From Bradyrhizobiaceae bacterium (GTDB lineage Bacteria > Pseudomonadota > Alphaproteobacteria > Rhizobiales > Beijerinckiaceae): a stretch of 64,000 nucleotides of DNA. The notes under the pieces are model-generated. The model saw only the letters and a list, made by a program, of their open reading frames with translations. It ran no database searches and had not been told where the DNA came from. Below are positions 31,398 to 52,230 of this stretch, in pieces (within the stretch, counting starts at the first letter, position 1; each line of letters starts with the position of its first letter). The DNA is taken from positions 2,180 through 66,179 of the forward strand of contig JAKFDB010000067.1 of the NCBI GenBank assembly GCA_036676315.1. The letters run 5' to 3'. Made by a program: the position numbers and the translations under genes.

Positions 31398-33764
31398 CTA
31401 CACCGGCGGCGCGTTGGCCTTGCGGACGCGCTCGCCGACCGCCCGGAAGAGACCTTCGAAGGGGCGGAAGACGAAGCGGATCGTCGAGCGGCCGGGCGGC
31501 ACCTGCACGGCGCGGAAGATGACGTTCGCCCGAAGCAGCTCGGCCGGCTTGCCGTTGACCTCGACCTGCCACCAGGGCTGCCAGACATCGTTGAGGACGA
31601 CGAAGCCGCCGCGCGGCGCCTCCGCCTCCAGCGTGACCTCCGTGGTGCCGTAATCGCGGATGCTCACCGTGCCGGGCCCGGCAGCGCCGCCCGGCAGTAC
31701 GGGCGGCGTCCTGTCGAGCAACACCGTGCGCCGCGGATCGAAGCCGGCGGGCCATTGGCCGCTCTTCAGGATGGCGTCGAAATCGGCAGCTTGCGCCTCG
31801 CTGACGAGCAGGACGCGCGGCAGGGCGCGCGGGTTCTCGTAGATGAAGGCGTCGGCAGTGCGGGCGATCTGGATGAGGTCGCCGGGCTTCAGCGCCTTGT
31901 CGATCTGCTCGACCGGCACGCCGGTGGCGATGAAGCGCAGGCCGAGCATGTCGGCGAGCAGCGAGCGATAGGACGGCATCAGCGCCGAGAAGGTCCGCTG
32001 GTCGGGCAGGGCGACATGATCGCCGGCCCCGGTGGCGGCGCTGTAGAGGCCGAGCCGCAGGGGATTGTAGCCCAGCGTGTTGTCGAGGCCGTGGACGAGG
32101 CTGGCATTGGGCCAGTGGAAATCGATGCCGGCGAGCTCGATACGGTCGCGCCGGTCAGGCCCGGCGGTGCGGGCGGTCTCACGCTTGAGCAGTCCGATGG
32201 TCTCGTTGCTGCTGTCGGCGCGCAGCACCTCGTATCTGGATGCGGGCAGCGCCGTCGATTCGCTCGGGCCGTTGTTGACCGAGAGATCGATGGTCATGGT
32301 CATGGCGAGAATGATGGCAGCGCCCATGCCGGCGCCCTGCAGGGCCAGCCCGCGCGCCGCGACGAGGGCGCCTGCGACCAGCAGCAGGCAGAGTGCGGCG
32401 GTGATCAGCGGGATTGCGGCCACGCCGAGCCTTCCGCTCGTCCAGGCCAGCCAGATGGCGAGGCCGAAGGCGCCGCCGAGCAGCGCAACCTCGAGGACGA
32501 TCTGCCAGGGCCGGGGCCGCGGCGCCGTATCCGTCAGGACGAGGTGGGTGAAATAGCCGCCGAGGATCGCGAGCAGTGCGCCGAGGATGAAGAGCGCATC
32601 GGCCGGCCGGCGATAGAGATCGATGCCGGGAAGCGCGGCGAAGAGGATCTGGAAGCCCGGCGTGTAGCGTCCGAGCGCGTAGACCAGCACGAGGATGGCG
32701 GCGATGCTGAGCGCCACGATCTCGCGCCGCCAGAGGCCGCCGCGCACGAGGCCGACACCGACGACCAGCAGCAACGGCAGCAGGCCGAGATAGAGCTCGC
32801 TCATGTTGCGGGCGAGATAGAGATCGACCGGGCCGAAGCGTGCCTCCCAGGCCGGGCTCGGCGGCCCCCAGAAATTCTCCAGCGGGCCGGCGGCGCCATA
32901 GAGATTGGCGACGATCCCGGTCAGCAGCGAGGCCGGGTGCAGCGAGCCCTTGCCGGCACCGGCAAGGTCGATCGCGGGCCGGTTGGATTCCTGGGCCAGG
33001 AAGGCGGTGAGCAGGATCGGTACAGCGGCGACCAGCACCGCGCCGACGACGCCGAGGCAAAGCGGCATCAGGCTGGCCCGGAGGGCCTTCAGCGGCCGGC
33101 TCGCCATGGCGATCGCGGCGAGCACCAGGCCGGAGAGGACATAGACGCCGATCAGCGCGACCTGGTCGCGCCCGAGCACCATGAAGCCGGCGACGATGCC
33201 GGCGCAGAAGCCATAGCTCCAGGAGCCGCGCTCCAGCGCCCGCGAGAGCAGCAGCAGGGTGACGGCGAAATAAGCCAGGCTGAGTACCTGGCCGACATGC
33301 TGGATGCGCCAGGCGGCGGCGGCCCCGAAAGCGAAGGCGAGGGCGCAGACCACAGCGCCGGCCGGATGCCAGTTCCGGTCGCGGAAGACCAGGGCGAGGC
33401 AGAGCGCGCCGACCAGCAGGGAGCCGAGCAGCGCCCCGTCGCTCCAGCGGAAATCCGGGGTCGGGTTGACCAGGGCGATCAGGGCGAAGGGCGGCGAGAA
33501 GATCAGCGATTGCGGATCGGCGACCTGCGGCGAGCCGGCGAAGACGAAGGGCGTCCAGAACGGCGAAAGCCCCTTGTGCAGGGCGCTGGCGAGGAACTGC
33601 AATTGCGGGTGGAAATGCGCCTTGGCGTCCCAGGGAACGGTGAGGACGCCGGAAAGCCAGGGCCAGGACAGGGCGAGCCAGGCGGCGCAGATGATCAGGA
33701 AGACCTTGGCGACGGGCCAGGGTGCGCGCGCTGGCGCGGGATCGGGACGCTCTTGCTCGGACAT
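31398..33764 (-). CDS. YfhO-like polytopic membrane protein (putative GT-C glycosyltransferase)
   Basis: About 13 TM segments, N-terminal PWDAKAHF...WTPFVFAGSPQVADPQ and C-terminal GFVVLNDVWQPWW...RANVIFRAVQVPPG typical of YfhO. Confidence 0.7.
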   Translation of the reverse strand: MSEQERPDPAPARAPWPVAKVFLIICAAWLALSWPWLSGVLTVPWDAKAHFHPQLQFLASALHKGLSPFWTPFVFAGSPQVADPQSLIFSPPFALIALVNPTPDFRWSDGALLGSLLVGALCLALVFRDRNWHPAGAVVCALAFAFGAAAAWRIQHVGQVLSLAYFAVTLLLLSRALERGSWSYGFCAGIVAGFMVLGRDQVALIGVYVLSGLVLAAIAMASRPLKALRASLMPLCLGVVGAVLVAAVPILLTAFLAQESNRPAIDLAGAGKGSLHPASLLTGIVANLYGAAGPLENFWGPPSPAWEARFGPVDLYLARNMSELYLGLLPLLLVVGVGLVRGGLWRREIVALSIAAILVLVYALGRYTPGFQILFAALPGIDLYRRPADALFILGALLAILGGYFTHLVLTDTAPRPRPWQIVLEVALLGGAFGLAIWLAWTSGRLGVAAIPLITAALCLLLVAGALVAARGLALQGAGMGAAIILAMTMTIDLSVNNGPSESTALPASRYEVLRADSSNETIGLLKRETARTAGPDRRDRIELAGIDFHWPNASLVHGLDNTLGYNPLRLGLYSAATGAGDHVALPDQRTFSALMPSYRSLLADMLGLRFIATGVPVEQIDKALKPGDLIQIARTADAFIYENPRALPRVLLVSEAQAADFDAILKSGQWPAGFDPRRTVLLDRTPPVLPGGAAGPGTVSIRDYGTTEVTLEAEAPRGGFVVLNDVWQPWWQVEVNGKPAELLRANVIFRAVQVPPGRSTIRFVFRPFEGLFRAVGERVRKANAPPV

Positions 33765-33788
33765 GGCCGCTTCCTGCCCCAGGCCCCG

Positions 33789-33836
33789 CACGGGATCAAT
33801 GCCCGACACGGGATCAGTGCCCGGCGCGAGGTCAAT
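33789..33836. repeat. 18-nt-period tandem repeat at the ribA 3' end
   Basis: CACGGGATCAATGCCCG (33789), CACGGGATCAGTGCCCG (33807) and a degenerate third copy CGCGAGGTCAAT overlapping the ribA stop. Confidence 0.6.
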
Positions 33837-34959
33837 CCTTCGGTGCGGCCCGCGCCATCAGCGCGTCCATGTCGATGAAATGGCCGGCCCGGTCGCGCTT
33901 CGAGGCGAGGTAGCGGACATTGTGGACGTTGGGGCGCCCGAGCACGCGCTGGGTCGCCGCGACTTCCAGCCCGGCCGCCTTGATCGCGCCGACCTTGAGC
34001 GGGTTGTTGGTCAGCGCCGTGATCCTGCTGACGCCGAGCTGGGTCAGCATCGCGGCGGCGAAGTCGAAATGGCGCTGGTCGAGATCGAAGCCGAGCACTT
34101 CGTCGGCGTCGTAGGTGTCCCAGCCCTGGCTCTGCAGCTTGTAGGCGCGCATCTTGTTGGAGATGCCGTTGCCGCGGCCTTCCTGGTCGAGATAGAGCAG
34201 GATGCCGCCCTCGTTCTGGGCCATCCACTCGACCGTCTCGCGCAACTGGTCGCCGCAATCGCATTTCAGCGAGCCGAACAGGTCGCCGGTCAGGCAGGCG
34301 GAGTGCAGGCGCACCGGTACGGCGGCCGAGAGGTCCGGCTTGCCGACGATGATCGCCACCTGATCGCGCAGGCCCTCGCCGCCGCGGAAGACCACGAATT
34401 CGGTATCGGGCGCGCCTTCCAGCGGCACCGGCGCGCGGCCGACGATGGCGAGCGTCGCCACCTGCGCGGCACGGTAGCCGTTGATGGCGGTGATGTTGGC
34501 CTCGACCAGCGGCTCCCCGGCGATTTGCGCCGCGGCAACCGGCACCAGGACCACCGCCGGCAGGACGAGCGCAAGCCGTGCCAGTTCGAGTGCCGCGGTG
34601 TCGAGCGCGTTGGCCGGACCGACCGGCGCATCGACGCGCGCCTCGATCTTGAGGGCAAGGGCTTCGACGCGGGCGATGTCGATTGCGGGCATGGCGAGGA
34701 CGCCGGTCTCGCTGCGGCCCTTGGCTCCAAGGCGGCGCAGGCGTGCGGCGCTCAGCACCAGCCGGGCATTGCCTTCGGCGAGGCCGTCGAGCCGCCCGGC
34801 GATGTCGGTGTCGGCGAGCTCTGCCGAAAGCGCCAGCGCCAGCGTCTCGCCGTCGCGCAGCAGCACGGGTCGGCCGGCACGGAATTCGGCGAGTGCCCGG
34901 TCGACTGCGATGATCTCGGTCTCGCCGGGACGGCCGAAAAGCGTACGCGACTTAGGCAT
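33832..34959 (-). CDS. ribA: GTP cyclohydrolase II with degenerate RibB-like N-terminal domain
   Basis: VRLHSACLTGDLFGSLKCDCG Zn motif, QEGRG and TNNPLK. Confidence 0.92.
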   Translation of the reverse strand: MPKSRTLFGRPGETEIIAVDRALAEFRAGRPVLLRDGETLALALSAELADTDIAGRLDGLAEGNARLVLSAARLRRLGAKGRSETGVLAMPAIDIARVEALALKIEARVDAPVGPANALDTAALELARLALVLPAVVLVPVAAAQIAGEPLVEANITAINGYRAAQVATLAIVGRAPVPLEGAPDTEFVVFRGGEGLRDQVAIIVGKPDLSAAVPVRLHSACLTGDLFGSLKCDCGDQLRETVEWMAQNEGGILLYLDQEGRGNGISNKMRAYKLQSQGWDTYDADEVLGFDLDQRHFDFAAAMLTQLGVSRITALTNNPLKVGAIKAAGLEVAATQRVLGRPNVHNVRYLASKRDRAGHFIDMDALMARAAPKD

Positions 34960-35060
34960 GGCTGCGTCCGTCAGATTGCGCCGGCTAGCGGCGGAGGAGA
35001 TGGTCTAATACGCTCGTCTCGGCGGGACGGATGCCATCCGGCGCAATACGGCGTTGCTAC

Positions 35061-35085
35061 AACGTGTCCAGTCGTGTGTGGTTCC
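35061..35085 (-). promoter_or_regulatory. EcfG/sigmaT-type promoter upstream of ribA
   Basis: Minus strand GGAAC CACACACGACTGGACA CGTT (N16), about 100 nt upstream of the ATG. Confidence 0.75.
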
Positions 35086-41159: not shown

Positions 41160-42203
41160 TCACGCCCGCAGCAGGCGCCGCAGCGTCTTCGTCAGCGGCC
41201 GCTCGAACCAGCGGTACACGGCGAAGGCGGCAAGGATCGCGGCGGCCAGCGCCGCCACGACGAACAGTCCCGTCGCCCCGGGAGCGACGCGCAGGAAAAG
41301 CTCGCGCATGGCGCGCATCGCAAAGGGATGGATGAGATAGAGCGCATAGGAGGCGTCGCCGAGCCGGGCGAGCAGGCGCACCAGCGCCGAGGGCGCCGAC
41401 CGTCCCTTGCCGCAGGCGGCGGCGGTAACGAGGAGGAGCGCCGCCGGGCCGCGAAAGGCGAGGGATCCCCAGGGCGTCTCGGCCCAGGCATTGCCGACTG
41501 CCGCGACCAGCAGCGCCGTTCCGGCCGCGACCATCAGCCAGCGCAAACGGCCATCGAGGCGCAGGCCGCGGTTCCGTAGCAGGGCGACCGCCATGCCGCC
41601 GGCGAATTCGAGCACGATCGGCTGGCCCCAGAAGCCGAAAGGCAGCGGCAGGGGGCCGGCAGCCTCGGCGGCGACCAGCCCCGCCAGCGCCAGAGCCGTC
41701 GCCGGCACGACCAGCGCGCGCGGCAGCAGCAGCGCCGCCGCGAACAGGGCGTAGAACAGCATCTCATAGTTCAGCGTCCAGCCCAGCGAATAGACCGGCT
41801 GGAGGGCGCCGGCGGCGTTGGGAGCCGGCCAGAACAGGTAGGAGGCGGCGATCTGCCCGAATGTCGGGGCGGCCGAGTTGACCAGGGCCGGCGAGGCAGC
41901 GAGCACGAGCAGGAACAAGGTCGTCGCCGCCCAGTAGAGCGGCACGATCCGGGCGACGCGGCGGGCGAGGAAAAGGCGCGCGCCGTCGCGTTTGCCGAAC
42001 AGGCCGGCCGAGGCGTGGACCATGATGAAGCCGGAGATGACGAAGAACAGGTCGACGCCGGCGGTCCAGGGCAGCAGGTGCCAGGGCGAGAACTGCGCGC
42101 CGGCCCGCTCCGCCAGGAAGCCGGCATCCGACTGGACATGGTGCACGGCGACCATCAGCGCCGCGAGCGCGCGCAGGACCTGGATGCCGTAGAGCTGGGA
42201 CAA
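41160..42203 (-). CDS. Acyltransferase-3 (OafA-like) membrane O-acyltransferase; start uncertain (TTG 42203)
   Basis: IQVLRALAALMV, GVDLFFVISGF, GWTLNYEMLFY and LGDASYALYLIH. Confidence 0.88.
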   Translation of the reverse strand: MSQLYGIQVLRALAALMVAVHHVQSDAGFLAERAGAQFSPWHLLPWTAGVDLFFVISGFIMVHASAGLFGKRDGARLFLARRVARIVPLYWAATTLFLLVLAASPALVNSAAPTFGQIAASYLFWPAPNAAGALQPVYSLGWTLNYEMLFYALFAAALLLPRALVVPATALALAGLVAAEAAGPLPLPFGFWGQPIVLEFAGGMAVALLRNRGLRLDGRLRWLMVAAGTALLVAAVGNAWAETPWGSLAFRGPAALLLVTAAACGKGRSAPSALVRLLARLGDASYALYLIHPFAMRAMRELFLRVAPGATGLFVVAALAAAILAAFAVYRWFERPLTKTLRRLLRA

Positions 42204-42264
42204 GGCGGGCGCGGCTCGAAAGCGAGAAAGGGAGTGCTGCGGCGTCAGGCGAGCCGCAGCGGGT

Positions 42265-43269
42265 TCACGCAAACCACAACCGCGCGGGATCGTCGAGCCC
42301 GAAACGCGCCGGCGCGCTGGCGATCGCGGCGATACCCCGTTCGGCGGGGGCGTCGCAGGTGATGACATGCAGGGCGAAGCGGGCTGCGAGATCCTCGACC
42401 GGCGGCTTGCCGCTGAACACGGCGTGGATCGTCGCTTTGTCGGCGAGCGGCAGGATACGCGGCGCGATGCCGCCGGCAAGATAGACCCCGCCGGTCGCCT
42501 TGAAGGCGAGGGCGAGATCGCCGGCGACGCGCGCCAGCAAGCGCCAGAAGCAGATGACGGCCTTCAGCGCCGCCGGGTTGCCGTCGAGGGCGAGGGTGGT
42601 GACGTCGGCGGCGCTGACATCGGGCTCGGAGAGGCCGGATTCCTGCACTACGGCCCGGTGGAAGCGCACGAGCCCGTCGCCGCGCAGCAGCGCCTCGATC
42701 GTCACACGCGGCAGGCCTTCCGCCAGTGCTGGCCAGAGCCGTGTCTCGGCCGGGTCCTCCGGGCCGATGCCGATATGGCCGCATTCGGTCGGCACCAGCA
42801 CGCCGGCCTTGCCGCGCATCAACAGCGCTGCGGCGCCGAAGCCGGTGCCGGGCCCGAGCACCAGGCGCGGGCCGGTCGCCTCGGGCCGGCCCGGCACCAG
42901 GGTCGTGACGTCGCCCTCGCGCAGCACGGCGAGCGAAGCGGCCAGAGACTCGAAATCATTGACCAGCAGGCCCTGCTCGAACCCGAGCGCCTGCGCCAGC
43001 TGCGGCCCGTCGAAGTGCCAGTTTGCATTGGTCAGCTGGGCCGCGCGCCCGTCGAGCGGACCGGCGACCGCCAGGATCGCCGAGCGCGGCCTGTCGTGGA
43101 GCGTGGCGAGCACTGCTTCGAGTGCGGCTTCCGGGGTCGGATGGGCACCAGTACTGATGCGGGCGAGGGGCTCCGGCTCGGCGCCGTGCTTGGACAGCAG
43201 CGACAGACGACAGTTCGTGCCGCCGATGTCGGCGATCAGGACCGGGCAGGGGAAGAGCGGGGCGCTCAA
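42265..43269 (-). CDS. glk: Glucokinase (Glk family)
   Basis: DIGGTN, VNDF, GPGTGFG, TECGH and YLAGGI. Confidence 0.88.
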   Translation of the reverse strand: MSAPLFPCPVLIADIGGTNCRLSLLSKHGAEPEPLARISTGAHPTPEAALEAVLATLHDRPRSAILAVAGPLDGRAAQLTNANWHFDGPQLAQALGFEQGLLVNDFESLAASLAVLREGDVTTLVPGRPEATGPRLVLGPGTGFGAAALLMRGKAGVLVPTECGHIGIGPEDPAETRLWPALAEGLPRVTIEALLRGDGLVRFHRAVVQESGLSEPDVSAADVTTLALDGNPAALKAVICFWRLLARVAGDLALAFKATGGVYLAGGIAPRILPLADKATIHAVFSGKPPVEDLAARFALHVITCDAPAERGIAAIASAPARFGLDDPARLWFA

Positions 43270-44045
43270 GCCGGCGCCTTCCAGTCGGCAAACCAGCCCA
43301 GCCCTTCGAGCGTGCCGGCGCGCGGGCGGTACTCGCAGCCGACGAAGCCGGGATAGCCGAGCGAATCGAGCTGGGTGAACAGTCGCGGATAGTCCGGCCT
43401 GGTGCCGTCAGGCTCGTGCCGGCCCTCGGCATTGGCGATCTGGACATGGCCGACGAGCGGGTAGAGTGCCTCCAGGCGTGCGCCGACACCGCCGTGGATC
43501 AGCTCGCAGTGATACATGTCGAACTGCAGCTTGACGTTCGGCCGGCCGGATTCGCGGACATAGGCCGCTGCCTGGTCGAAGTCGTTGAGGAAATAGCCCG
43601 GCATGTCCTTGCCGTTGATCGGCTCGAGCAGGAGGTCGATGCCGTGCTCGCCGAGCTTGTCGGCGGCATAGGCGAGCGAGGCACGATAGGCCTCCTGCGC
43701 CGCGGGATCGTTCGGGTCGGCGTGGCCGGCCATCATGTGAAGGCGCTTGACCCCGGTCTCGTGGACATAGGCCAAGGCAGTCTCGATGCCCTTGCGGAAT
43801 TCGGCCTCGCGGCCGGGGATCGCGGCCATGCCGCGCTCGCCCTTGTCCCAGTCGCCCGGCGGCAGGTTGAACAGGGCCTGTTCGAGTTCGCCGCCGGCCA
43901 GGGCGAGACCGACCTTCTCCGCTGGGTGCTCATAGGGAAAGAGGAATTCGACGGCCTCGAAGCCGGCCTCGGACGCCGCCTTGAAGCGGTCGAGGAAGGC
44001 CCATTCGGTGAACATCATCGAAAGGTTGGCGGCGAAGCGAGGCAT
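43266..44045 (-). CDS. hyi: Hydroxypyruvate/2-oxo-tetronate isomerase family (Hyi/OtnI)
   Basis: MPRFAANLSMMFTE, LLEPIN, QFDMYH and GHVQIA...GRHEP. Confidence 0.85.
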   Translation of the reverse strand: MPRFAANLSMMFTEWAFLDRFKAASEAGFEAVEFLFPYEHPAEKVGLALAGGELEQALFNLPPGDWDKGERGMAAIPGREAEFRKGIETALAYVHETGVKRLHMMAGHADPNDPAAQEAYRASLAYAADKLGEHGIDLLLEPINGKDMPGYFLNDFDQAAAYVRESGRPNVKLQFDMYHCELIHGGVGARLEALYPLVGHVQIANAEGRHEPDGTRPDYPRLFTQLDSLGYPGFVGCEYRPRAGTLEGLGWFADWKAPA

Positions 44046-44110: not shown

Positions 44111-44135
44111 AACGCGACTGGCGGCACTCCGTTCC
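44111..44135 (-). promoter_or_regulatory. EcfG/sigmaT-type promoter upstream of hyi-glk-acyltransferase
   Basis: Minus strand GGAAC GGAGTGCCGCCAGTCG CGTT (N16), about 65 nt upstream of the ATG. Confidence 0.72.
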
Positions 44136-45000: not shown

Positions 45001-45098
45001 TCGTCCCGGGCGACCGCAGGGAGACCCGGGACCCATGCCGGAACCGTTCAGGCATGGGTCCCGGATCGGCGCCGCTGACGCGGCTTGTCCGGGATGAC
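45001..45098. repeat. Mosaic GTC-tagged palindromic repeat
   Basis: Left half is the reverse complement of the subfamily A right arm; right half GGATCGGCGCCGCTGACGCGGCTTGTCCGGGATGAC is shared with 62868. Confidence 0.8.
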
Positions 45099-45124
45099 CT
45101 TCGAGGGAGTCGCTCGTGCGAAGG

Positions 45125-46117
45125 CTACTTCTTCGCTTCCGGCTTGGCCGGCGGGTTCGGGTCCTTCGAGAAGTTGCGGAAGACCATGTCGGGCGAGGAG
45201 GTGTTGTGGCGCGAATGGGTGGCGCGGCCCATCCAGACATCGGTCGCCTTGCCGCCGGTGAAGGGCATCAGGGGCTCCTCGCGCCAGCCCTTGGCGCCGG
45301 GCTCGCGGATGGCGATGCGGGCGACGTCGTTGTTGAATTCGGTGACATACATCGAGCGCAGCGCGGCGAAGGCCTTGCCGCCGGTGACCGGCTTGTCGAG
45401 CACCGCGTCGAGCACCATGCGGTTCTGGTCGACGCTGTCGAGCTTGAGCGTGCCGGCGGAGCCGTCCTTGAAGGCGAGGTTGAAGGAGAGCGTCTTCGGG
45501 TCGAAGGCGATCTCCCTGATGTTCACCACCGGCCGGGCGCCGTCCTGCTCGACCGGGCCGAACAGGAAGGAGGAGCCGTAAGCCGCGGCGGAGAGCTGCT
45601 GCGGCGGCAGCGGCCGGACGCGCCAGTAGCCGTCCTGCGGATAGACGACGAGCACCTCATAGGAGCCGGTCTTGCCGAGCTTCCAGAGTTGGACGAGGTG
45701 CAAGCCCTTCTCGACGCGGTCGCCGACCCGGAAGGTCGTCTCGGCCGGGCGCCAGAAGCTCTCGAAGGTGTAGCCGACCAGCCAGTACTCGATGCTCTCG
45801 TAGAAGGTGACCCGCTGCGGCGGCACGGGTGCCTTGAAGACCGGATCGCCGGTCATGTCGCAATCCGTCCAGTCGGCATCCCAGTTGTCGCGCAGGAGCC
45901 CGGCGATGTAGGCCGGATGCGCCGCCTCGATGCGGAAGCGCCGGACCTCCGGCGAGATCGCCTTGATGGTGACGTTGTCCTTTTCGGCACAAAGCACCGG
46001 CTCGGATTCGTTCTTGACCTCGACGGCGACATCGCTGGCAGCATGGGCCGGCAGGGCGAACAGAAGCGCCAGTGGAACGAGCAGTGGGCGCAGGCGCGCA
46101 GGAAGCGTCATCATCAT
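45125..46117 (-). CDS. Secreted/periplasmic hypothetical protein, beta-rich
   Basis: Sec signal ending AHA; starts 4 nt after the fkbM stop; host-like codons; no family recognised. Confidence 0.8.
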   Translation of the reverse strand: MMMTLPARLRPLLVPLALLFALPAHAASDVAVEVKNESEPVLCAEKDNVTIKAISPEVRRFRIEAAHPAYIAGLLRDNWDADWTDCDMTGDPVFKAPVPPQRVTFYESIEYWLVGYTFESFWRPAETTFRVGDRVEKGLHLVQLWKLGKTGSYEVLVVYPQDGYWRVRPLPPQQLSAAAYGSSFLFGPVEQDGARPVVNIREIAFDPKTLSFNLAFKDGSAGTLKLDSVDQNRMVLDAVLDKPVTGGKAFAALRSMYVTEFNNDVARIAIREPGAKGWREEPLMPFTGGKATDVWMGRATHSRHNTSSPDMVFRNFSKDPNPPAKPEAKK

Positions 46118-46121
46118 CGAA

Positions 46122-46880
46122 TCAACCTTGCAGGATGGCGTAGATATCGCCCGAATTGGCGGTGTGCGGCAGGTCGCGGATATAGCCGCCCATGACCTCG
46201 GTGCCGACCGCCTCCGGGAAGACCAGCTTCTGGCTTTCACCGAGCGCGACATTGAAACGGTAGGGACCGAGCGCCTCGACGAGAGCGAGGCAGGCCTCGG
46301 CGACGTCGCGCTGGATGGTGGTGAATTCGAAGGAGAGTGCTGGGACCGGCCGCGTCAGCCCGGCCAGCACATGCGCCTCGAAACCCTCGACATCGATCTT
46401 GACGAAGGCCGGCAGGCCGTACCGGCAGATCAGCGCATCGAGCGTGGTGCAGGGAACCGAGAGTTCACGGTCCCAGACCTGTTCGCGCCAGCCATCGGCA
46501 TTGCTGGCGGCGCCGACGAAATCCTGTGAAACGGTCGAGACCGTCGGGTTGGCGCTGTTGATCCGGAGCGCCACCGTGCCCGGCCGGTCGCCGCAGGCAG
46601 CCTCGACCAGGGTGACATCGGGGTCGCGGCCATGGATCAGCCGGATGGCGCGGGCCGGGCCCGGCTGCGGCTCGAGGGCGACGACGCGCGCGCCGAGCCG
46701 GCGGAAGGAGGAGATGCGATCGCCGACATGCGAGCCGATATCGAAGGCGAGGTCGCCGGGGCCGAGAAACCGGGCGTAGAGGGTATCCATCGCGGCGTTG
46801 CGGACCCGGTCGCCATGGTAGACGCGCAGCGAGCGCGACAGGCTTTTCGCCGTGCCCTTGGGATAGGCGACGGACTTCAT
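46122..46880 (-). CDS. FkbM family methyltransferase
   Basis: FDIGSHVG, VALEPQP and FVKIDVEGFE; ATG overlaps the opgH stop (ATGA). Confidence 0.9.
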   Translation of the reverse strand: MKSVAYPKGTAKSLSRSLRVYHGDRVRNAAMDTLYARFLGPGDLAFDIGSHVGDRISSFRRLGARVVALEPQPGPARAIRLIHGRDPDVTLVEAACGDRPGTVALRINSANPTVSTVSQDFVGAASNADGWREQVWDRELSVPCTTLDALICRYGLPAFVKIDVEGFEAHVLAGLTRPVPALSFEFTTIQRDVAEACLALVEALGPYRFNVALGESQKLVFPEAVGTEVMGGYIRDLPHTANSGDIYAILQG

Positions 46881-48709
46881 TTCGGCTCGCCCGCCAGAAT
46901 GGCGGTGAGCTCGGCCGGCGGATCGAAATCCTCCGGGATGCCGCAGAGGCCGCGGCGCGCGAACCAGCGGCCGAGCGCCGGCGAGGCGGTGAGCATGGCG
47001 AAGGGGATCGCCAGCACGTAGCCCGCGGTCAGCGGCAGCGACCAGAGCAGCACCGTCGGCGAAAGCAAGGCGAGCGCCCCGAAGATGTAGAGGCCGAAGA
47101 GCAGGTGCGGCCACAAGCCCGCGAAGGCGGTGGCGAAGGAGAGGGCGTGGGCATCGCGGGCCTGGCCGTTCCAGCCGATCCTCGCCTTGCCGAAGGCGAG
47201 GCCGACCATGAAGATCGTGGTCCGGAAGGTCGAGACCGCGCCCTGCAGGAAGGCGAAGACGATCTCGATCAGCGAGGAGGCGACGAAGCGGCCGGTCCCG
47301 CCATAGCGCTTGGTGCCGCCCTTGCTGAGCAGGATGTCGGCGAAGCCGGCGAGCTTCGGCGAGAGATACATCGCGAAGAACAGGACATAGAGAGTGGCGG
47401 CCAGGCCGGCCGGGTAATCGGCGAGGCCGCGATCCTCCCAGACCTTCACCGGCAGCAGCGCGATCATCAGCGTCCAGGCCGGCAGGCCGATGAACATCAG
47501 GATCGCCCAGGCGAGCTGGAAGCGGCTCATGAACTTGAGCCCCGGGATATCCATCAGCTTGAGATATTGCAGGTTGCCGAGGCACCAGCGCAGGTCGCGC
47601 CGGGCGAATTCGAGCATGGTCGGCGGGTTCTCCTCCCAGCTGCCCATCTCGACCGGCAGGACGCGCACTTCATAGCCGGCGCGGCGCATCAGGGTCGCCT
47701 CGACCTGGTCATGGCTCATGACATGGCCGCCGAGCGGCGGGCCACCCGGCAGGACCGGCAGATGGCACTCGTCGCGGAAGGGCGCGATCCGGACCATGGC
47801 GTTATGGCCCCAGAACGGGCCGCAATCGCCGATCCACCAGGCCGAGCCCATGGTGTAGGGCCGCATGCCGTGGCGCATGCCGAACTGGAAGATGCGCGCA
47901 AAGGCCGATTTGCTCGGCATGCCGACGACGAGGCTCTGCAGGATGCCGAGCTTCGGCCAGGCCTGCATCATCCGGGCGAGTTTCACGATCGCCGCGCCGG
48001 ACATGACGCTGTCGGCGTCGAGCGGCAGCATGACCTCGTAGCGCTCGCCCCAGCGTTCGCAGAAGTCGCGGACATTGCCGGCCTTGTAGCCGGTATTATC
48101 GGTGCGGCGGCGATAGGTCAGGCGCGAGGCGTCGCCGATCGTGGCGGCAAGGGAGGCGGCGAGCTTTTCCTCCGCCGCGGCGACTGCCGGGTCGTCAGTG
48201 TCGGAGAGCACGAAATAGTCGAACCACTCGCCTTCGCCGGTGGCATCGAGGCTCGCCTTGACGATCTCGAGGCGGCGGAAGGCGCGAGCCGGGTCCTCGT
48301 TGCGCAGCGTCATCAGGATTGCGGTGCGGATCGCGATCGGCGTCGGGGCATCGCCTGCGGCGGCGAAGGGCGCAACGCGGCGCTGCCCATCCTCGATGCC
48401 ATGCAGCAGCCAGAGGCCGATCACGGCGTTCCAGAAGCCGAGCACCGTCCAGGGCGCGCCGAACAGGAAGGCGATGAAGATCACGATGTCCGCCGCACTC
48501 CAGCCGCCGGCCGAGAGGACGCGCGAGAGGCCGTAGAGCAGGGCGGCGAGCGTCGCCAGGTTGAGGCCTGCGACCAGCAGCCGGCGCGCACGCAGCGTTC
48601 CTGTCGCCTGGAGGCCGGCCGGGGTCAGGCCCGGACCAAGCCGTTGCTCTTGCGCCGCCGCCTGGAACGTGGTCGGACCGGGACGCTGGTTCATGGCGGA
48701 CTCTGTCAT
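46877..48709 (-). CDS. opgH: Glucans biosynthesis glucosyltransferase OpgH/MdoH-like GT2 (short form; start 48709 or 48694)
   Basis: RNEDP, YFVLSDTDD, GYKAGNV, LDADS, FWGHNA, SHDQVEA and RRDLRWCLGNLQ. Confidence 0.88.
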   Translation of the reverse strand: MTESAMNQRPGPTTFQAAAQEQRLGPGLTPAGLQATGTLRARRLLVAGLNLATLAALLYGLSRVLSAGGWSAADIVIFIAFLFGAPWTVLGFWNAVIGLWLLHGIEDGQRRVAPFAAAGDAPTPIAIRTAILMTLRNEDPARAFRRLEIVKASLDATGEGEWFDYFVLSDTDDPAVAAAEEKLAASLAATIGDASRLTYRRRTDNTGYKAGNVRDFCERWGERYEVMLPLDADSVMSGAAIVKLARMMQAWPKLGILQSLVVGMPSKSAFARIFQFGMRHGMRPYTMGSAWWIGDCGPFWGHNAMVRIAPFRDECHLPVLPGGPPLGGHVMSHDQVEATLMRRAGYEVRVLPVEMGSWEENPPTMLEFARRDLRWCLGNLQYLKLMDIPGLKFMSRFQLAWAILMFIGLPAWTLMIALLPVKVWEDRGLADYPAGLAATLYVLFFAMYLSPKLAGFADILLSKGGTKRYGGTGRFVASSLIEIVFAFLQGAVSTFRTTIFMVGLAFGKARIGWNGQARDAHALSFATAFAGLWPHLLFGLYIFGALALLSPTVLLWSLPLTAGYVLAIPFAMLTASPALGRWFARRGLCGIPEDFDPPAELTAILAGEPK

Positions 48710-48755
48710 GCGATGGGCTGAGCGGAAGCTGGCAGGGAACGTCGCGGAGGTCGGA

Positions 48756-49754
48756 GTGATAGAACCGGCAAAGGCCGCCAAGGCAAGCGGCAAAGCGGCT
48801 GCAACAGCGCTCTGGTATGTCGCGCCGCGTGAATGCGCCCTGAACGACCTCGAGCTGCCGCAGCGCGGACCGCAGGACTGCCTTGTCCGCGCGCTGTGGA
48901 GCGGCATCAGCCGCGGTACGGAACGGCTGGTCTTCGAAGGGCGGGTTCCGGTTTCCGAGCATGACCGCATGCGCGCTCCGTTCCAGGAGGGCGCCTTCCC
49001 GTTCCCGGTCAAATACGGCTACTGCGCCGTCGGAACCGTCGAAGAAGGCCCTCCGGTGCTCGTCGGCGAGACCGCGTTCTGCCTCTATCCGCATCAGGAT
49101 CGCTTCGTCGTGCCGGCCGGCCGCGTCGTGGTGGTGCCGAAGGCGGTGCCGGCGCGGCGGGCCGTGCTCGCCGCCAACATGGAAACGGCGCTGAACGCGC
49201 ATTGGGACGCCGGCTCCGGCCCGGCCGACCGGACCGTCGTGGTCGGCGGCGGCGTGCTCGGCCTGCTCGTCGCCTATATCGGCGCGCGGTTGCCGGGCGC
49301 GCAGGTGACTTTGGTCGACATCGATCCGGGGCGCGCTGCGCTGGCGGCGGCGCTCGGCTTCGACTTCGCCTTGCCGCAGGACTGCCCCGGCGAAGCCGAT
49401 CTCGTTTTCCACGCCAGCGCCAGCGCGGCGGGCCTGTCGACCGCCATCGGCGCGGCCGGCTTCGAGGCCCGCATCGTCGAATTGAGCTGGTATGGCGAGG
49501 GCGTGGTCGCGGTTCCGCTCGGCGGCGCCTTCCATTCGAAGCGGTTGCAACTGGTCTCGTCACAGGTCGGGCAGGTCTCGCCGTCGCGCCGGCCGCGCTT
49601 CGACTATGCGCGCCGGACGCAGGCCGCGCTGTCGCTGCTGGCGGACGCCCGGCTCGATGCGCTGATCACCGACGAGATCGCCTTCACGGAAGCGCCGGAA
49701 CGGTTACCGGCGCTGTTCGCCGGCGCAGGGCTGACCGCGGTTCTGCGCTATTGA
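48756..49754 (+). CDS. MDR/zinc-binding alcohol dehydrogenase-like protein
   Basis: GGAGG RBS and GTG; SGISRGTE, PVKYGY, ANMETALN and VVGGGVLG. Confidence 0.85.
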   Translation: MIEPAKAAKASGKAAATALWYVAPRECALNDLELPQRGPQDCLVRALWSGISRGTERLVFEGRVPVSEHDRMRAPFQEGAFPFPVKYGYCAVGTVEEGPPVLVGETAFCLYPHQDRFVVPAGRVVVVPKAVPARRAVLAANMETALNAHWDAGSGPADRTVVVGGGVLGLLVAYIGARLPGAQVTLVDIDPGRAALAAALGFDFALPQDCPGEADLVFHASASAAGLSTAIGAAGFEARIVELSWYGEGVVAVPLGGAFHSKRLQLVSSQVGQVSPSRRPRFDYARRTQAALSLLADARLDALITDEIAFTEAPERLPALFAGAGLTAVLRY

Positions 49755-49946: not shown

Positions 49947-50348
49947 ATGTTTTCCGTCGAAGTCCGCGACCGCATCATGATCGGCCACTCCCTGCCGGAC
50001 CCGTTCTTTGGCCCGGCGCAGGGGATGCATGGTGCGACCTTCATCGTCGATGTCGCCTTCTTCCGCGAACATCTGACGAAGCAGAACGTGGTGGTCGACA
50101 TCGGCGCCGCGCTCGATGTCCTCAACAAGACGCTGAAGCCGCTGAACTACCAGAATCTCGACGCGCTGCCGCAGTTCAAGGGCGTGCTGACGACCACGGA
50201 ATTCCTCTGCAAGCACATCTTCGACGCGATGTCGGCCGCGGCGAAATCGGGCGCGCTCGGCGCCGACGGCGCCGGCCTCGCCAAGATCCGCGTCACCCTG
50301 CACGAAACCGACCTCGCCCGCGCCAGCTATGAGGGCGCGCTCGCGTGA
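49947..50348 (+). CDS. 6-pyruvoyl-tetrahydropterin synthase-like (COG0720) protein, atypical subfamily
   Basis: T-fold pattern IGHSL...FFGPAQGMHGAT...NYQNLD...TTTEF; lacks CxxxHGH and ExxHGH. Confidence 0.85.
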   Translation: MFSVEVRDRIMIGHSLPDPFFGPAQGMHGATFIVDVAFFREHLTKQNVVVDIGAALDVLNKTLKPLNYQNLDALPQFKGVLTTTEFLCKHIFDAMSAAAKSGALGADGAGLAKIRVTLHETDLARASYEGALA

Positions 50349-51394
50349 GCGAGATCGCCTTCGCCATTCCCGGCGATCTGTCGCTGCCGACCGGCGGCTA
50401 TGCCTATGACCGGCGGCTGCTGGCGGAGTGGGCGCAGATGGGCGTGGCGGCGCATCATCTCGAGCTTCCGGGCAGCTTTCCCGCTCCGAGCGAGGCCGAT
50501 CTCGCCGAGACCGGCAGGGCGATCCTGTCGCAGCCCTATGACCGGGTGCTGCTGATCGATGGGCTTGCCTATGGCGCCTTCCCGGAGAGCATCGCGGCCG
50601 GGCTTGCCGGCCGTGTCGTCGCACTGGTGCACCATCCGCTCGGGCTCGAGGCGGGGCTTTCCCCGGAACGCGCGGCGGCCTTGCTGGCGAGGGAAGCCGC
50701 AGCGCTGCGCCATGCCAGTGCCGTCATCGTCACCAGCCCAGCCACAAAGCGTCTGCTCGTCAGCGATTTTTCCGTGCCGGAAACCCGCATCACCGTGGCC
50801 GAGCCGGGCGTTGATCCGGCGCCGCGCGCCACAGGCTCTGCCGCAGGCGCGCCGCTCCAGCTGCTCGCGGTGGGCTCGCTGGTGCCGCGCAAGGGCTATG
50901 ACGTGCTGGTCGAGGCGCTCGCCGGACTGGCCGAGCGGAACTGGCGGCTGACCATCATCGGCGCCGACCGGGCGCCGGCGACCGCGGCAGCGCTGGCGGC
51001 GCAGATCGCTGCAGCCAGTCTCGGCGATCATGTCCGGATTGCCGGTGCGGTCGACCAGGCGACGCTCGAGGCCGCCTATGCCGGCGCGGATCTCTTCGTC
51101 CTGCCCTCGCTGTTCGAGGGCTATGGCATGGTGCTGACGGAAGCGCTGGCGCGCGGCCTGCCGATCCTCTGCACCACCGGCGGTGCGGCGGCAGAGACGG
51201 CGCCCGATGCGGCAGCGCTGAAGGTTTCCCCCGGCGATGCCGAAGCGTTGCGCGCCGGGCTCGCCCGCCTCCTTGCCGATGGCGAGGAGCGCAAACGGCG
51301 TTCCGACGCCGCCTGGCATGCCGCCGGCGCATTGCCAGCTTGGCGGCAGACCGCGACAATCGTCGCCGAAACCTGTGCGAAGGTGTCACCATGA
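50345..51394 (+). CDS. Glycosyltransferase family 4
   Basis: TGGYAYDRR, VGSLVPRKGYD and PSLFEGYGMVLTEA; GTGA overlap with the PTPS-like gene. Confidence 0.9.
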   Translation: MSEIAFAIPGDLSLPTGGYAYDRRLLAEWAQMGVAAHHLELPGSFPAPSEADLAETGRAILSQPYDRVLLIDGLAYGAFPESIAAGLAGRVVALVHHPLGLEAGLSPERAAALLAREAAALRHASAVIVTSPATKRLLVSDFSVPETRITVAEPGVDPAPRATGSAAGAPLQLLAVGSLVPRKGYDVLVEALAGLAERNWRLTIIGADRAPATAAALAAQIAAASLGDHVRIAGAVDQATLEAAYAGADLFVLPSLFEGYGMVLTEALARGLPILCTTGGAAAETAPDAAALKVSPGDAEALRAGLARLLADGEERKRRSDAAWHAAGALPAWRQTATIVAETCAKVSP

Positions 51395-52230
51395 GTGGAT
51401 TTTCCCCGGACTGGCTCGCCTTGCGCGAGCCGGCCGACCATGCCGCCCGCAACCCGCAGGTGCTGGCCGCGGTCGGCGCCACCTTCTCCAGCCGGCAATC
51501 GCTGACGATCGTCGATCTCGGCTGCGGCGCCGGCTCGAATCTGCGCGGCACCTACTCGGTGCTGCCGGCGCGTCAGTACTGGACGCTGGTCGATTTCGAT
51601 GCGCGCCTGCTTGCGGTGGCTCGCGAGCGCCTCACCGATTGGGCCGACGAGGCGGAAGGGCTGGGTGAGGAGCTCGTGCTGCGCAAGGGCGAGAAGTCGC
51701 TGACGGTCGATTTCCGCCGCGCCGACCTCAATACCGATCTCGAATGGGTGCTGGGCTGGCAGCCCGACCTTGTCACCGCCGCCGCGCTGTTCGACCTGAC
51801 TTCGGTGCGCTGGCTGGAGCGCTTCGTCGCCTCGCTGGCGAGCCAGCGGCTGCCGCTCTACACGGCGCTGACCTATGACGGGCGGGAGAGCTGGGAGCCG
51901 GCCCATCCGGCCGATGCCAGGATGCTCGTCGCCTTCAACCACCACCAGCACAGCGACAAGGGTTTTGGTCCCGCCGCCGGACCGGAGGCGACCGAGACGC
52001 TGGCGCAGGCCTTCCGCAAGTCGGGCTGCGCCGTTACCGTCGGCGAAAGTCCCTGGCTGCTCGACGCGGGGAGCGCGACGCTGACGCGCGAACTGGCCGC
52101 CGGCATCGCCGCGGCGGTCGCCGAGACCGGACATGTCGAGCCGGAGACGATCGAAAGCTGGCTTGCGGCCAAGCGCGAGGCGGTTTCCGGCCGCATCGGC
52201 CATCAGGACCTATGGGCACGCCCGGTCTGA
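51391..52230 (+). CDS. Class I SAM-dependent methyltransferase-like protein
   Basis: DWLALREPAD, VDLGCGAGSN and ALFDL; start overlaps the GT4 stop (ATGA). Confidence 0.82.
   Translation: MSGFSPDWLALREPADHAARNPQVLAAVGATFSSRQSLTIVDLGCGAGSNLRGTYSVLPARQYWTLVDFDARLLAVARERLTDWADEAEGLGEELVLRKGEKSLTVDFRRADLNTDLEWVLGWQPDLVTAAALFDLTSVRWLERFVASLASQRLPLYTALTYDGRESWEPAHPADARMLVAFNHHQHSDKGFGPAAGPEATETLAQAFRKSGCAVTVGESPWLLDAGSATLTRELAAGIAAAVAETGHVEPETIESWLAAKREAVSGRIGHQDLWARPV

Follow-up and report, generated by a model that had tools for sequence, protein, structure and literature searches.

A short OpgH-type synthase gene, coupled to genes for an FkbM-family methyltransferase and a secreted protein, adjoins a PTPS-IV operon in an alphaproteobacterial genome

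Osmotic adaptation, envelope signalling, symbiosis and virulence are among the traits of Proteobacteria that periplasmic glucans influence. The product of the membrane glucosyltransferase OpgH of Escherichia coli, encoded in the opgGH (mdoGH) operon, has yet to be confirmed with the pure protein (PMC10514313), and the GH186 proteins OpgG and OpgD are periplasmic beta-1,2-glucanases or transglycosylases (PMC10514313, PMC11842490). In Caulobacter, OpgH is the sole opg gene and works without OpgG or OpgD, and its periplasmic loops are shorter than those of the E. coli protein (Daitch et al. 2024, PMC11389396). A separate literature describes the PTPS-IV subfamily of COG0720 (PTPS, 6-pyruvoyl-tetrahydropterin synthase) and an orphan gene cluster (PMC5445326, PMC5041015); the subfamily carries the signature FGPAQ, and the published neighborhood analysis of it names FolE2, not OpgH (PMC5445326). 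Here we analyse a stretch of 64,000 nucleotides (the window) from contig JAKFDB010000067.1 of a Bradyrhizobiaceae bacterium, in which a short OpgH paralogue, an FkbM-family methyltransferase and a secreted protein that we call Sec are encoded in this order on the minus strand (Table 1). We propose, with a probability of about 55%, that this opgH2-fkbM-sec operon and a divergent PTPS-IV operon together build an envelope glucan or glycoconjugate without OpgG, probably a methylated one. Our literature search found no paper with both OpgH and FkbM, none linking PTPS-IV to OpgH, FkbM or Sec, and none on SCO6650.

The short OpgH scores 918.8 bits against the NCBIfam equivalog model for MdoH (NF003963, cut-off 884), with residues 24-608 aligning to positions 20-602 of the 610-position model, and it also matches Pfam PF13632. 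Its GT2 motifs are LSDTDD (168-173), LDADS (230-234), SHDQVEA (332-338) and RRDLRW (370-375), and all catalytic motifs align with those of the canonical 739-residue OpgH encoded in the same genome, to which the protein is 34% identical. These results bear out the description given by an earlier sequence-only reading of the window, which had named a short OpgH-like GT2 enzyme with intact catalytic motifs. The protein covers just positions 203-740 of the 855-position E. coli-type model, and its hydropathy peaks at 44-93 and 403-575 lie on both sides of the cytoplasmic GT2 domain, the count of membrane segments being rough. PDB sequence searches with OpgH, FkbM and a Sec profile returned no match.

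In order to place this protein among its relatives, we used 201 genomes of the host's order (order sample, to which counts refer unless stated otherwise) and 301 genomes of its class (class sample). NF003963 scores in the order sample are bimodal: 46 genomes contain a match of at least 650 bits and make up the short-OpgH clade of this sample, and all other OpgH matches score 455 bits or less and usually adjoin an opgG. The clade is also present in 15 of the 301 class-sample genomes. Judged by its NF003963 score, the short OpgH belongs to a distinct clade. Where FkbM and Sec are absent, the genes downstream of the short OpgH are unrelated and variable. In two metagenome-assembled genomes (MAGs) the short opgH matches lie in several frames (L092:2521-4249 and L104:4376-6113), and these are pseudogenes or assembly errors.

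The strongest partner of the short OpgH is the PTPS-IV operon, not Sec. In 43 of the 46 clade genomes, spread over about 25 genera, the strand opposite the short OpgH encodes a PTPS at a distance of 1-1.6 kb; one of the three exceptions is a contig end, and the other two are genomes without PTPS. The adjacency of the short OpgH and the PTPS-IV operon is thus near-obligate. The PTPS of the window carries FFGPAQ at residues 20-25, which contains the PTPS-IV signature, and it is encoded in an operon with a dehydrogenase of the alcohol dehydrogenase (ADH) type, a GT4 glycosyltransferase and an S-adenosylmethionine (SAM) methyltransferase (MT). The full ADH-PTPS-GT4-MT set was found in 18 of the 20 loci fetched around short OpgH genes; in these loci the dehydrogenase divergently adjoins the short OpgH, and the methyltransferase follows GT4 in nearly all. 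Within the 1.5-kb flanks read in the class sample, 8 of 13 clade genomes (the host and genome G098 left out) show ADH and/or PTPS, with GT4-PTPS in one of them. Several loci add a GTP cyclohydrolase II (GCH II) paralogue, a creatininase-family gene and RibD_C, and GCH II directly adjoins the PTPS-IV operon in eight loci; the window's own GCH II paralogue is encoded about 15 kb from the operon, together with a GT-C-like gene. The sequence-only reading had taken the trio by itself. The trio stands as a conserved unit, but its most constant partner is the divergent operon.

The trio opgH2-fkbM-sec makes up a genuine operon, which is one of the two arms of a conserved module. An ATGA at 46880-46877 contains both the opgH stop and the fkbM start, and a spacer of 4 nt (46121-46118) separates fkbM from the Sec gene; both junctions had been claimed before and can be read directly at these positions. 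Dozens of genomes have these genes in the same order, at identities down to 41-47%, which is far beyond chance, and the trio co-occurs in this order in Bosea, in Hyphomicrobiaceae and in more distant lineages, which answers the earlier question of whether it is found elsewhere. The window has the compact fkbM-Sec form. In many Bosea genomes (as at L029:6422-6814, minus strand, and L031:4951-6834) a gene for a 130-residue antisense membrane protein is inserted between the two, in some genomes along with a LysR-type regulator and another gene.

Only about 46 bp (48710-48755) lie between the opgH start codon and the likely GTG start of the dehydrogenase, so that the two promoters must overlap coding sequence or one another. 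No sigma-70 or EcfG consensus was found in this gap, a motif scan found no EcfG-type motif upstream of opgH, and scans of the window for sigma-70 promoters and terminators gave nothing informative. Directly downstream of the Sec gene the region 45005-45127 on the minus strand folds at -68.9 kcal/mol (z = -4.66 against shuffles) and contains a hairpin without a U-tract, which is likely the 3' end of the operon transcript or its stabiliser, and may act as a terminator. The next gene encodes a TauE-family permease. The window has a G+C content of about 68-70%, and the nearest relatives of its genes are from Bosea species.

Table 1. Positions of the trio, its flanking hairpin and the divergent operon in the window.
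Feature	Position	Strand	Start and stop	Product or remark
Short OpgH paralogue, GT2 membrane glucosyltransferase	46877-48709	minus	ATG 48709 to TGA 46879-46877	610 aa; NF003963, PF13632
FkbM-family SAM methyltransferase	46122-46880	minus	ATG 46880 to TGA 46124-46122	252 aa; PF05050, TIGR01444
Sec, predicted secreted or periplasmic, all-beta	45125-46117	minus	ATG 46117 to TAG 45127-45125	330 aa; no family model; AlphaFold2
Predicted Sec-type signal peptide, residues 1-26	46040-46117	minus		MMMTLPARLRPLLVPLALLFALPAHA/AS; sole hydrophobic segment
RNA hairpin	45023-45067	minus		17-bp stem; directly 3' of the Sec gene
Zn-dehydrogenase-like protein (medium-chain dehydrogenase/ADH), first gene of the PTPS-IV operon	48756-49754	plus	start uncertain (48693 or 48756)	weak PF00107
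PTPS-IV-type 6-pyruvoyl-tetrahydropterin synthase homologue	49947-50348	plus		133 aa; PF01242, FGPAQ
GT4 glycosyltransferase	50345-51394	plus		PF00534, PF13692
Class I SAM methyltransferase, fourth gene of the PTPS-IV operon	51340-52230	plus	start uncertain	weak PF13649, PF08242

The family of OpgG and OpgD (PF04349) has four matches in the host genome and none on the window's contig. One of the four is part of a canonical opgGH operon, in which opgG directly precedes the 739-residue opgH with overlapping stop and start codons, and the remaining three are orphans. The description of the locus as an opgH without opgG is therefore correct for the window and its contig, on which the short OpgH is not encoded with a PF04349 partner, but not for the genome, where the search proposed in the sequence-only reading turned up four opgG/D genes and a second, canonical OpgH, all on other contigs. 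No PF04349 match and no other OpgH was found in 16 of the 46 clade genomes, eight of which are at least 96% complete, and a canonical OpgH accompanies the short one in each of the remaining 30. OpgG therefore tracks the canonical OpgH, not the short one, and by this distribution the short OpgH clade works without OpgG, as had been supposed of its member in the window.

Members of the FkbM family O-methylate sugars and polyketide units, FkbM and NoeI being examples. The window's protein matches PF05050 (45 bits, cut-off 22.7) and TIGR01444 (77.3 bits, cut-off 37.7), carries the glycine-rich SAM motif DIGSHVGD at residues 47-54, and has no hydrophobic or transmembrane segment and no export signal. 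Its AlphaFold2 model (predicted local distance difference test score, pLDDT, of 93.7) shows a class I methyltransferase fold of the Rossmann type; Foldseek returned 326 matches at E<=0.001, and the PDB neighbours are generic (template modelling score, TM, of about 0.45) and give no clue to the substrate. Orthologues, defined at E<=1e-30, are encoded in 33 of the 201 genomes; in 19 of the 46 clade genomes such an orthologue comes directly after the short OpgH.

The coupling of OpgH and FkbM, proposed earlier from the window, has natural counterparts in gene fusions. A search for long proteins with a domain like the window's FkbM (query P0002) gave 266 proteins, and 117 of the best 120 also contain an OpgH part. 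Among these best 120 there are 96 full-length OpgH-FkbM fusion clusters of about 848 residues, always with OpgH preceding FkbM. Two of the 120 bear organism names assigned by NCBI, Pseudolabrys and Xanthobacteraceae (P0428, P0438). Median identity of the fusions is 48% to the window's OpgH and 58% to its FkbM. One of them (P0401), verified on its contig, faces an ADH-PTPS-GT4-MT-RibD_C-GCH II-creatininase array. The occurrence of both parts in one polypeptide in 96 full-length clusters argues that OpgH and FkbM act together, and the order of the fusion, the lack of an export signal and the need for SAM place FkbM at the C-terminus of OpgH, on the cytoplasmic side.

FkbM has links to GT4 as well. 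Another fusion, P0465, joins FkbM to a GT4 part that is 40% identical to the window's GT4, and its gene adjoins a canonical-type opgGH; in one further genome (G198) GT4 and FkbM are adjacent. On metagenome contig L144 (1730-6942) a GT4-FkbM fusion is convergent with a canonical-type opgG-opgH and follows ABC-transporter genes, with no PTPS or dehydrogenase. Since FkbM is linked to GT4 by both fusion and adjacency, the methyl group may go to a glycoside primer and not to the glucan chain. From the fusions to OpgH and GT4 we predict that the reaction of FkbM is the O-methylation of a sugar on the cytoplasmic side of the membrane. O-methylated periplasmic glucans are known in Azospirillum, a point that the literature searched did not confirm.

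At two loci without a short OpgH (L147:9488-12673 and L149:10788-15953), FkbM is encoded by the PTPS-IV operon together with a CDP-alcohol phosphatidyltransferase and a sulfatase-family (LtaS/OpgB-like) membrane protein, and L149 adds an MprF-type LPG_synthase_TM flippase-like protein nearby. These neighbors point to a lipid-linked or envelope destination and hint at an unusual phospholipid head group.

The third protein of the trio, Sec, has no Pfam or NCBIfam family at E<=0.1, and 42 diverse members of its family searched against Pfam at E<=1 gave no recurring family. Its single hydrophobic segment is N-terminal, with a cleavage site AHA/AS read by eye and no lipobox cysteine, and the relatives in the alignment have hydrophobic leaders as well; the earlier description of a signal-peptide protein of no recognised family holds. 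Sec contains two cysteines only: in the family alignments C86 never varies, and C43 is invariant or almost so; E45, D47, N48, D162, R166, D264, R298, H304, N305 and D310 are likewise invariant or near-invariant. The family comprises 722 clusters at 50% identity, and a search with an 11-sequence alignment located more than 575 loci in species-representative genomes, mostly Hyphomicrobiales apart from a few records under other labels. Some relatives are fused to PA14, Calx-beta, NosD-like, FG-GAP, cohesin/PPC or trypsin domains, which fits a predicted extracytoplasmic and possibly carbohydrate-related role.

The AlphaFold2 model of Sec, built from 121 sequences, is confident (pLDDT 91.8, predicted TM-score 0.88) and contains 25 strands. 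Foldseek with this model gave nothing at E<=0.001 in the PDB and BFVD, in the same search that returned the 326 matches for FkbM, and the comparison with glycoside hydrolase and lectin folds that had been suggested for Sec therefore came back empty. The best matches (PDB, E=0.02, TM 0.16; BFVD, E=0.013) are beta-propeller-like noise and insignificant. A carbohydrate-binding module, likewise considered, found no counterpart in these databases either, and the glycoside hydrolase, lectin and OpgG-like readings of Sec were dropped.

Sec is associated with the short OpgH at the level of whole genomes. The short OpgH is found in 20 of the 24 Sec-bearing order genomes against a background of 46 in 201, and in all six Sec-bearing class-sample genomes against 15 in 301, counts that are not phylogenetically independent, the 24 genomes representing 13 genera. 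All 24 have some OpgH. In 13 of the 46 clade genomes the Sec gene comes after OpgH-FkbM, and at the locus of Bosea sp. TND4EK4, which lacks fkbM, it comes directly after OpgH. On this distribution we classify Sec as a lineage-specific accessory and not as a core part of the system. MAGs labelled Hydrogenophaga, Gemmobacter, Candidatus Contendobacter and Reyranella contain Sec genes that share 57-85% identity with that of Bosea; binning contamination or horizontal transfer could account for Sec in such distantly labelled MAGs. Unlinked copies of Sec have variable neighbors and no conserved partner. A RibA-like gene adjoins a lone Sec in genome G178, which we read as coincidence, that genome being without PTPS-IV.

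The pathway that we propose for the two operons has four steps. The PTPS-IV operon would make a GTP-derived aglycone, which GT4 would glycosylate. FkbM, at the cytoplasmic C-terminus of OpgH, would then methylate the primer sugar or the cytoplasmic end of the growing chain; the coupling is seen in the gene fusions, and the chemistry is that predicted for the family. The short OpgH would add glucose from UDP-glucose and pass the product through the inner membrane, a beta-1,2-glucan backbone being predicted from its family membership. Finally, Sec, which the signal peptide and the conserved cysteine pair would locate in the periplasm, may bind or trim the exported product.

Several observations weigh against this proposal. 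The reverse association is weaker, since 17 of the 60 genomes with PTPS-IV have no short OpgH. In four genomes without a short OpgH (G154, G158, G075 and G118), FkbM is encoded 3.5-4.3 kb from PTPS, so that FkbM may act on the small glycoside and never on the glucan. The host genome itself has four OpgG/D paralogues, three of them orphans, and the short OpgH could use OpgG here. The fold of Sec offers no functional clue, an antisense gene lies between Sec and fkbM in many Bosea genomes, and Sec is often unlinked: linked and unlinked copies are interspersed on the Sec tree with at least 11 changes of state, some of the apparently lone copies being contig ends. Finally, four Sec genomes have neither the short OpgH nor PTPS-IV and encode canonical OpgH only. 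These four genomes suggest that what Sec acts on is shared by the two types of OpgH, which would make it a glucan.

Among the alternatives, the one that survives best is that the short OpgH adds one or a few glucoses to the PTPS-IV compound, or to a lipid bearing it, and flips it, the short OpgH then being no glucan polymerase here and the product a small methylated glycoside or glycolipid. The PTPS-IV operon adjoining in nearly every case, the ties of FkbM to both GT4 and OpgH, and the company that FkbM keeps with enzymes of lipid head groups, alongside the PTPS-IV operon in genomes without a short OpgH, are all consistent with such a small product. We nevertheless consider it unlikely, as the short OpgH passes the curated MdoH equivalog cut-off and keeps the whole channel-forming C-terminal membrane region of a processive OpgH.

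The version put forward in the sequence-only reading, a methylated periplasmic glucan with Sec standing in for OpgG as the periplasmic glucanase or transglycosylase that works with OpgH, is distinctly unlikely. Only two of the 16 OpgG-less genomes have Sec, and most short OpgHs therefore need neither Sec nor OpgG; in the host genome Sec coexists with the four OpgG/D genes. As a homologue of OpgG or of GH186 proteins at large Sec was rejected as well: hhalign gives a probability of 0.9% against the genome's four OpgG/D proteins, PF04349 does not match, and no solved fold does, GH186 entries in the PDB included. What agrees with this version is that a third of the clade (16 of 46) is without OpgG, that genome G098 has the full trio and no OpgG, that Sec is associated with the short OpgH across genomes, and that Sec is predicted to be periplasmic and, like an enzyme, has numerous Asp, Glu, His, Arg and Trp residues that are invariant. 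As a general replacement of OpgG, however, Sec does not hold up.

A second, ordinary synthase of osmoregulated periplasmic glucans (OPGs) that uses an orphan OpgG or OpgD, with fkbM, sec and the PTPS-IV operon as neighbors that share no product with it, would fit the three orphan opgG/D and two OpgH genes of this genome and the likewise unlinked opgD of E. coli, but is very improbable in view of the OpgH-FkbM gene fusions, the PTPS-IV operon adjoining in 43 of the 46 genomes and about 25 genera, and the presence of OpgG with canonical OpgH only.

Within the two-operon proposal a more specific scheme can be drawn, in which the PTPS-IV operon supplies a GTP-derived primer, glycosylated and methylated, for the short OpgH to elongate and export, and Sec is the founder of a new family of carbohydrate-active enzymes with an unseen fold that trims or cyclises the product in the periplasm as GH186 does classically. 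We hold this scheme as a whole to be doubtful. If true, it would establish a new class of periplasmic glucan conjugates and a function for the long-orphan PTPS-IV cluster.

Other genes of the window touch on these subjects. A membrane acyltransferase of the Acyl_transf_3 family (41160-42479, minus strand; PF01757, 95.7 bits, with a weak MdoC/OpgC match) is encoded four genes downstream of Sec. Synteny is kept in most Bosea loci, without conservation outside Bosea, and the enzyme could acylate a glucan. In the region 31398-35085 on the minus strand, a gene for a GT-C/PMT_2-like membrane protein of about 819 residues comes after the window's GCH II paralogue (33832-35004), and an EcfG-like motif GGAAC-N16-CGTT precedes the pair at 35061-35085. 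Since GCH II is encoded directly beside the PTPS-IV operon in other genomes, this pair may share the pathway. A second EcfG-like motif (44111-44135, minus strand) lies upstream of a 2-oxo-tetronate isomerase-like gene (43266-44045), which precedes a glucokinase gene (42265-43269). The window contains three EcfG-like motifs, which is not significant alone, as 7 of 100 shuffles reach three.

The cluster bears on how OpgH is primed and how it may work without OpgG. It is a compact and widely distributed system, in which the synthase has ties with a methyltransferase (often its fusion partner), a small-molecule pathway and a secreted protein. The orphan PTPS-IV cluster would thereby gain a concrete and testable envelope destination. 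The Sec family, with its 722 clusters, no Pfam or NCBIfam model and no solved relative, is a candidate for a new carbohydrate-acting family.

In comparison with known systems, the short OpgH shares the GT2 family, the catalytic motifs and the OpgH membrane architecture with OpgH of the E. coli opgGH operon, of which the host genome holds a true copy on another contig. It differs from this canonical paralogue in being shorter at both ends and in having a shorter periplasmic loop, and from the E. coli system in having no opgG partner, being coupled to FkbM, Sec and the PTPS-IV operon instead. The likeness to Caulobacter is that of an alphaproteobacterial OpgH without OpgG or OpgD. The Caulobacter protein is not a member of the short clade, since the control genome fails to reach E<=1e-150 on NF003963, a model on which clade members reach about 1e-195 or better, and the Caulobacter paper reports no link to FkbM, Sec or PTPS-IV (PMC11389396). 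With other FkbM-family enzymes the window's FkbM has in common its membership in PF05050 and TIGR01444 and the class I SAM methyltransferase fold, and it differs in its translational coupling to a membrane glucan synthase, with which it forms a single protein elsewhere. Sec resembles the GH186 proteins in its predicted periplasmic location, its all-beta structure and its gene's position beside an OpgH; it has no sequence or structural kinship with them and is dispensable for most clade members. The divergent operon matches the described PTPS-IV cluster in the FGPAQ signature of its PTPS and in the GCH II, creatininase-family and RibD_C genes found near it in relatives. What the literature searched does not contain is the tie of an OpgH clade to PTPS-IV, FkbM and Sec, in a system that would work much as an OPG synthase does, with different partners and probably a different product.

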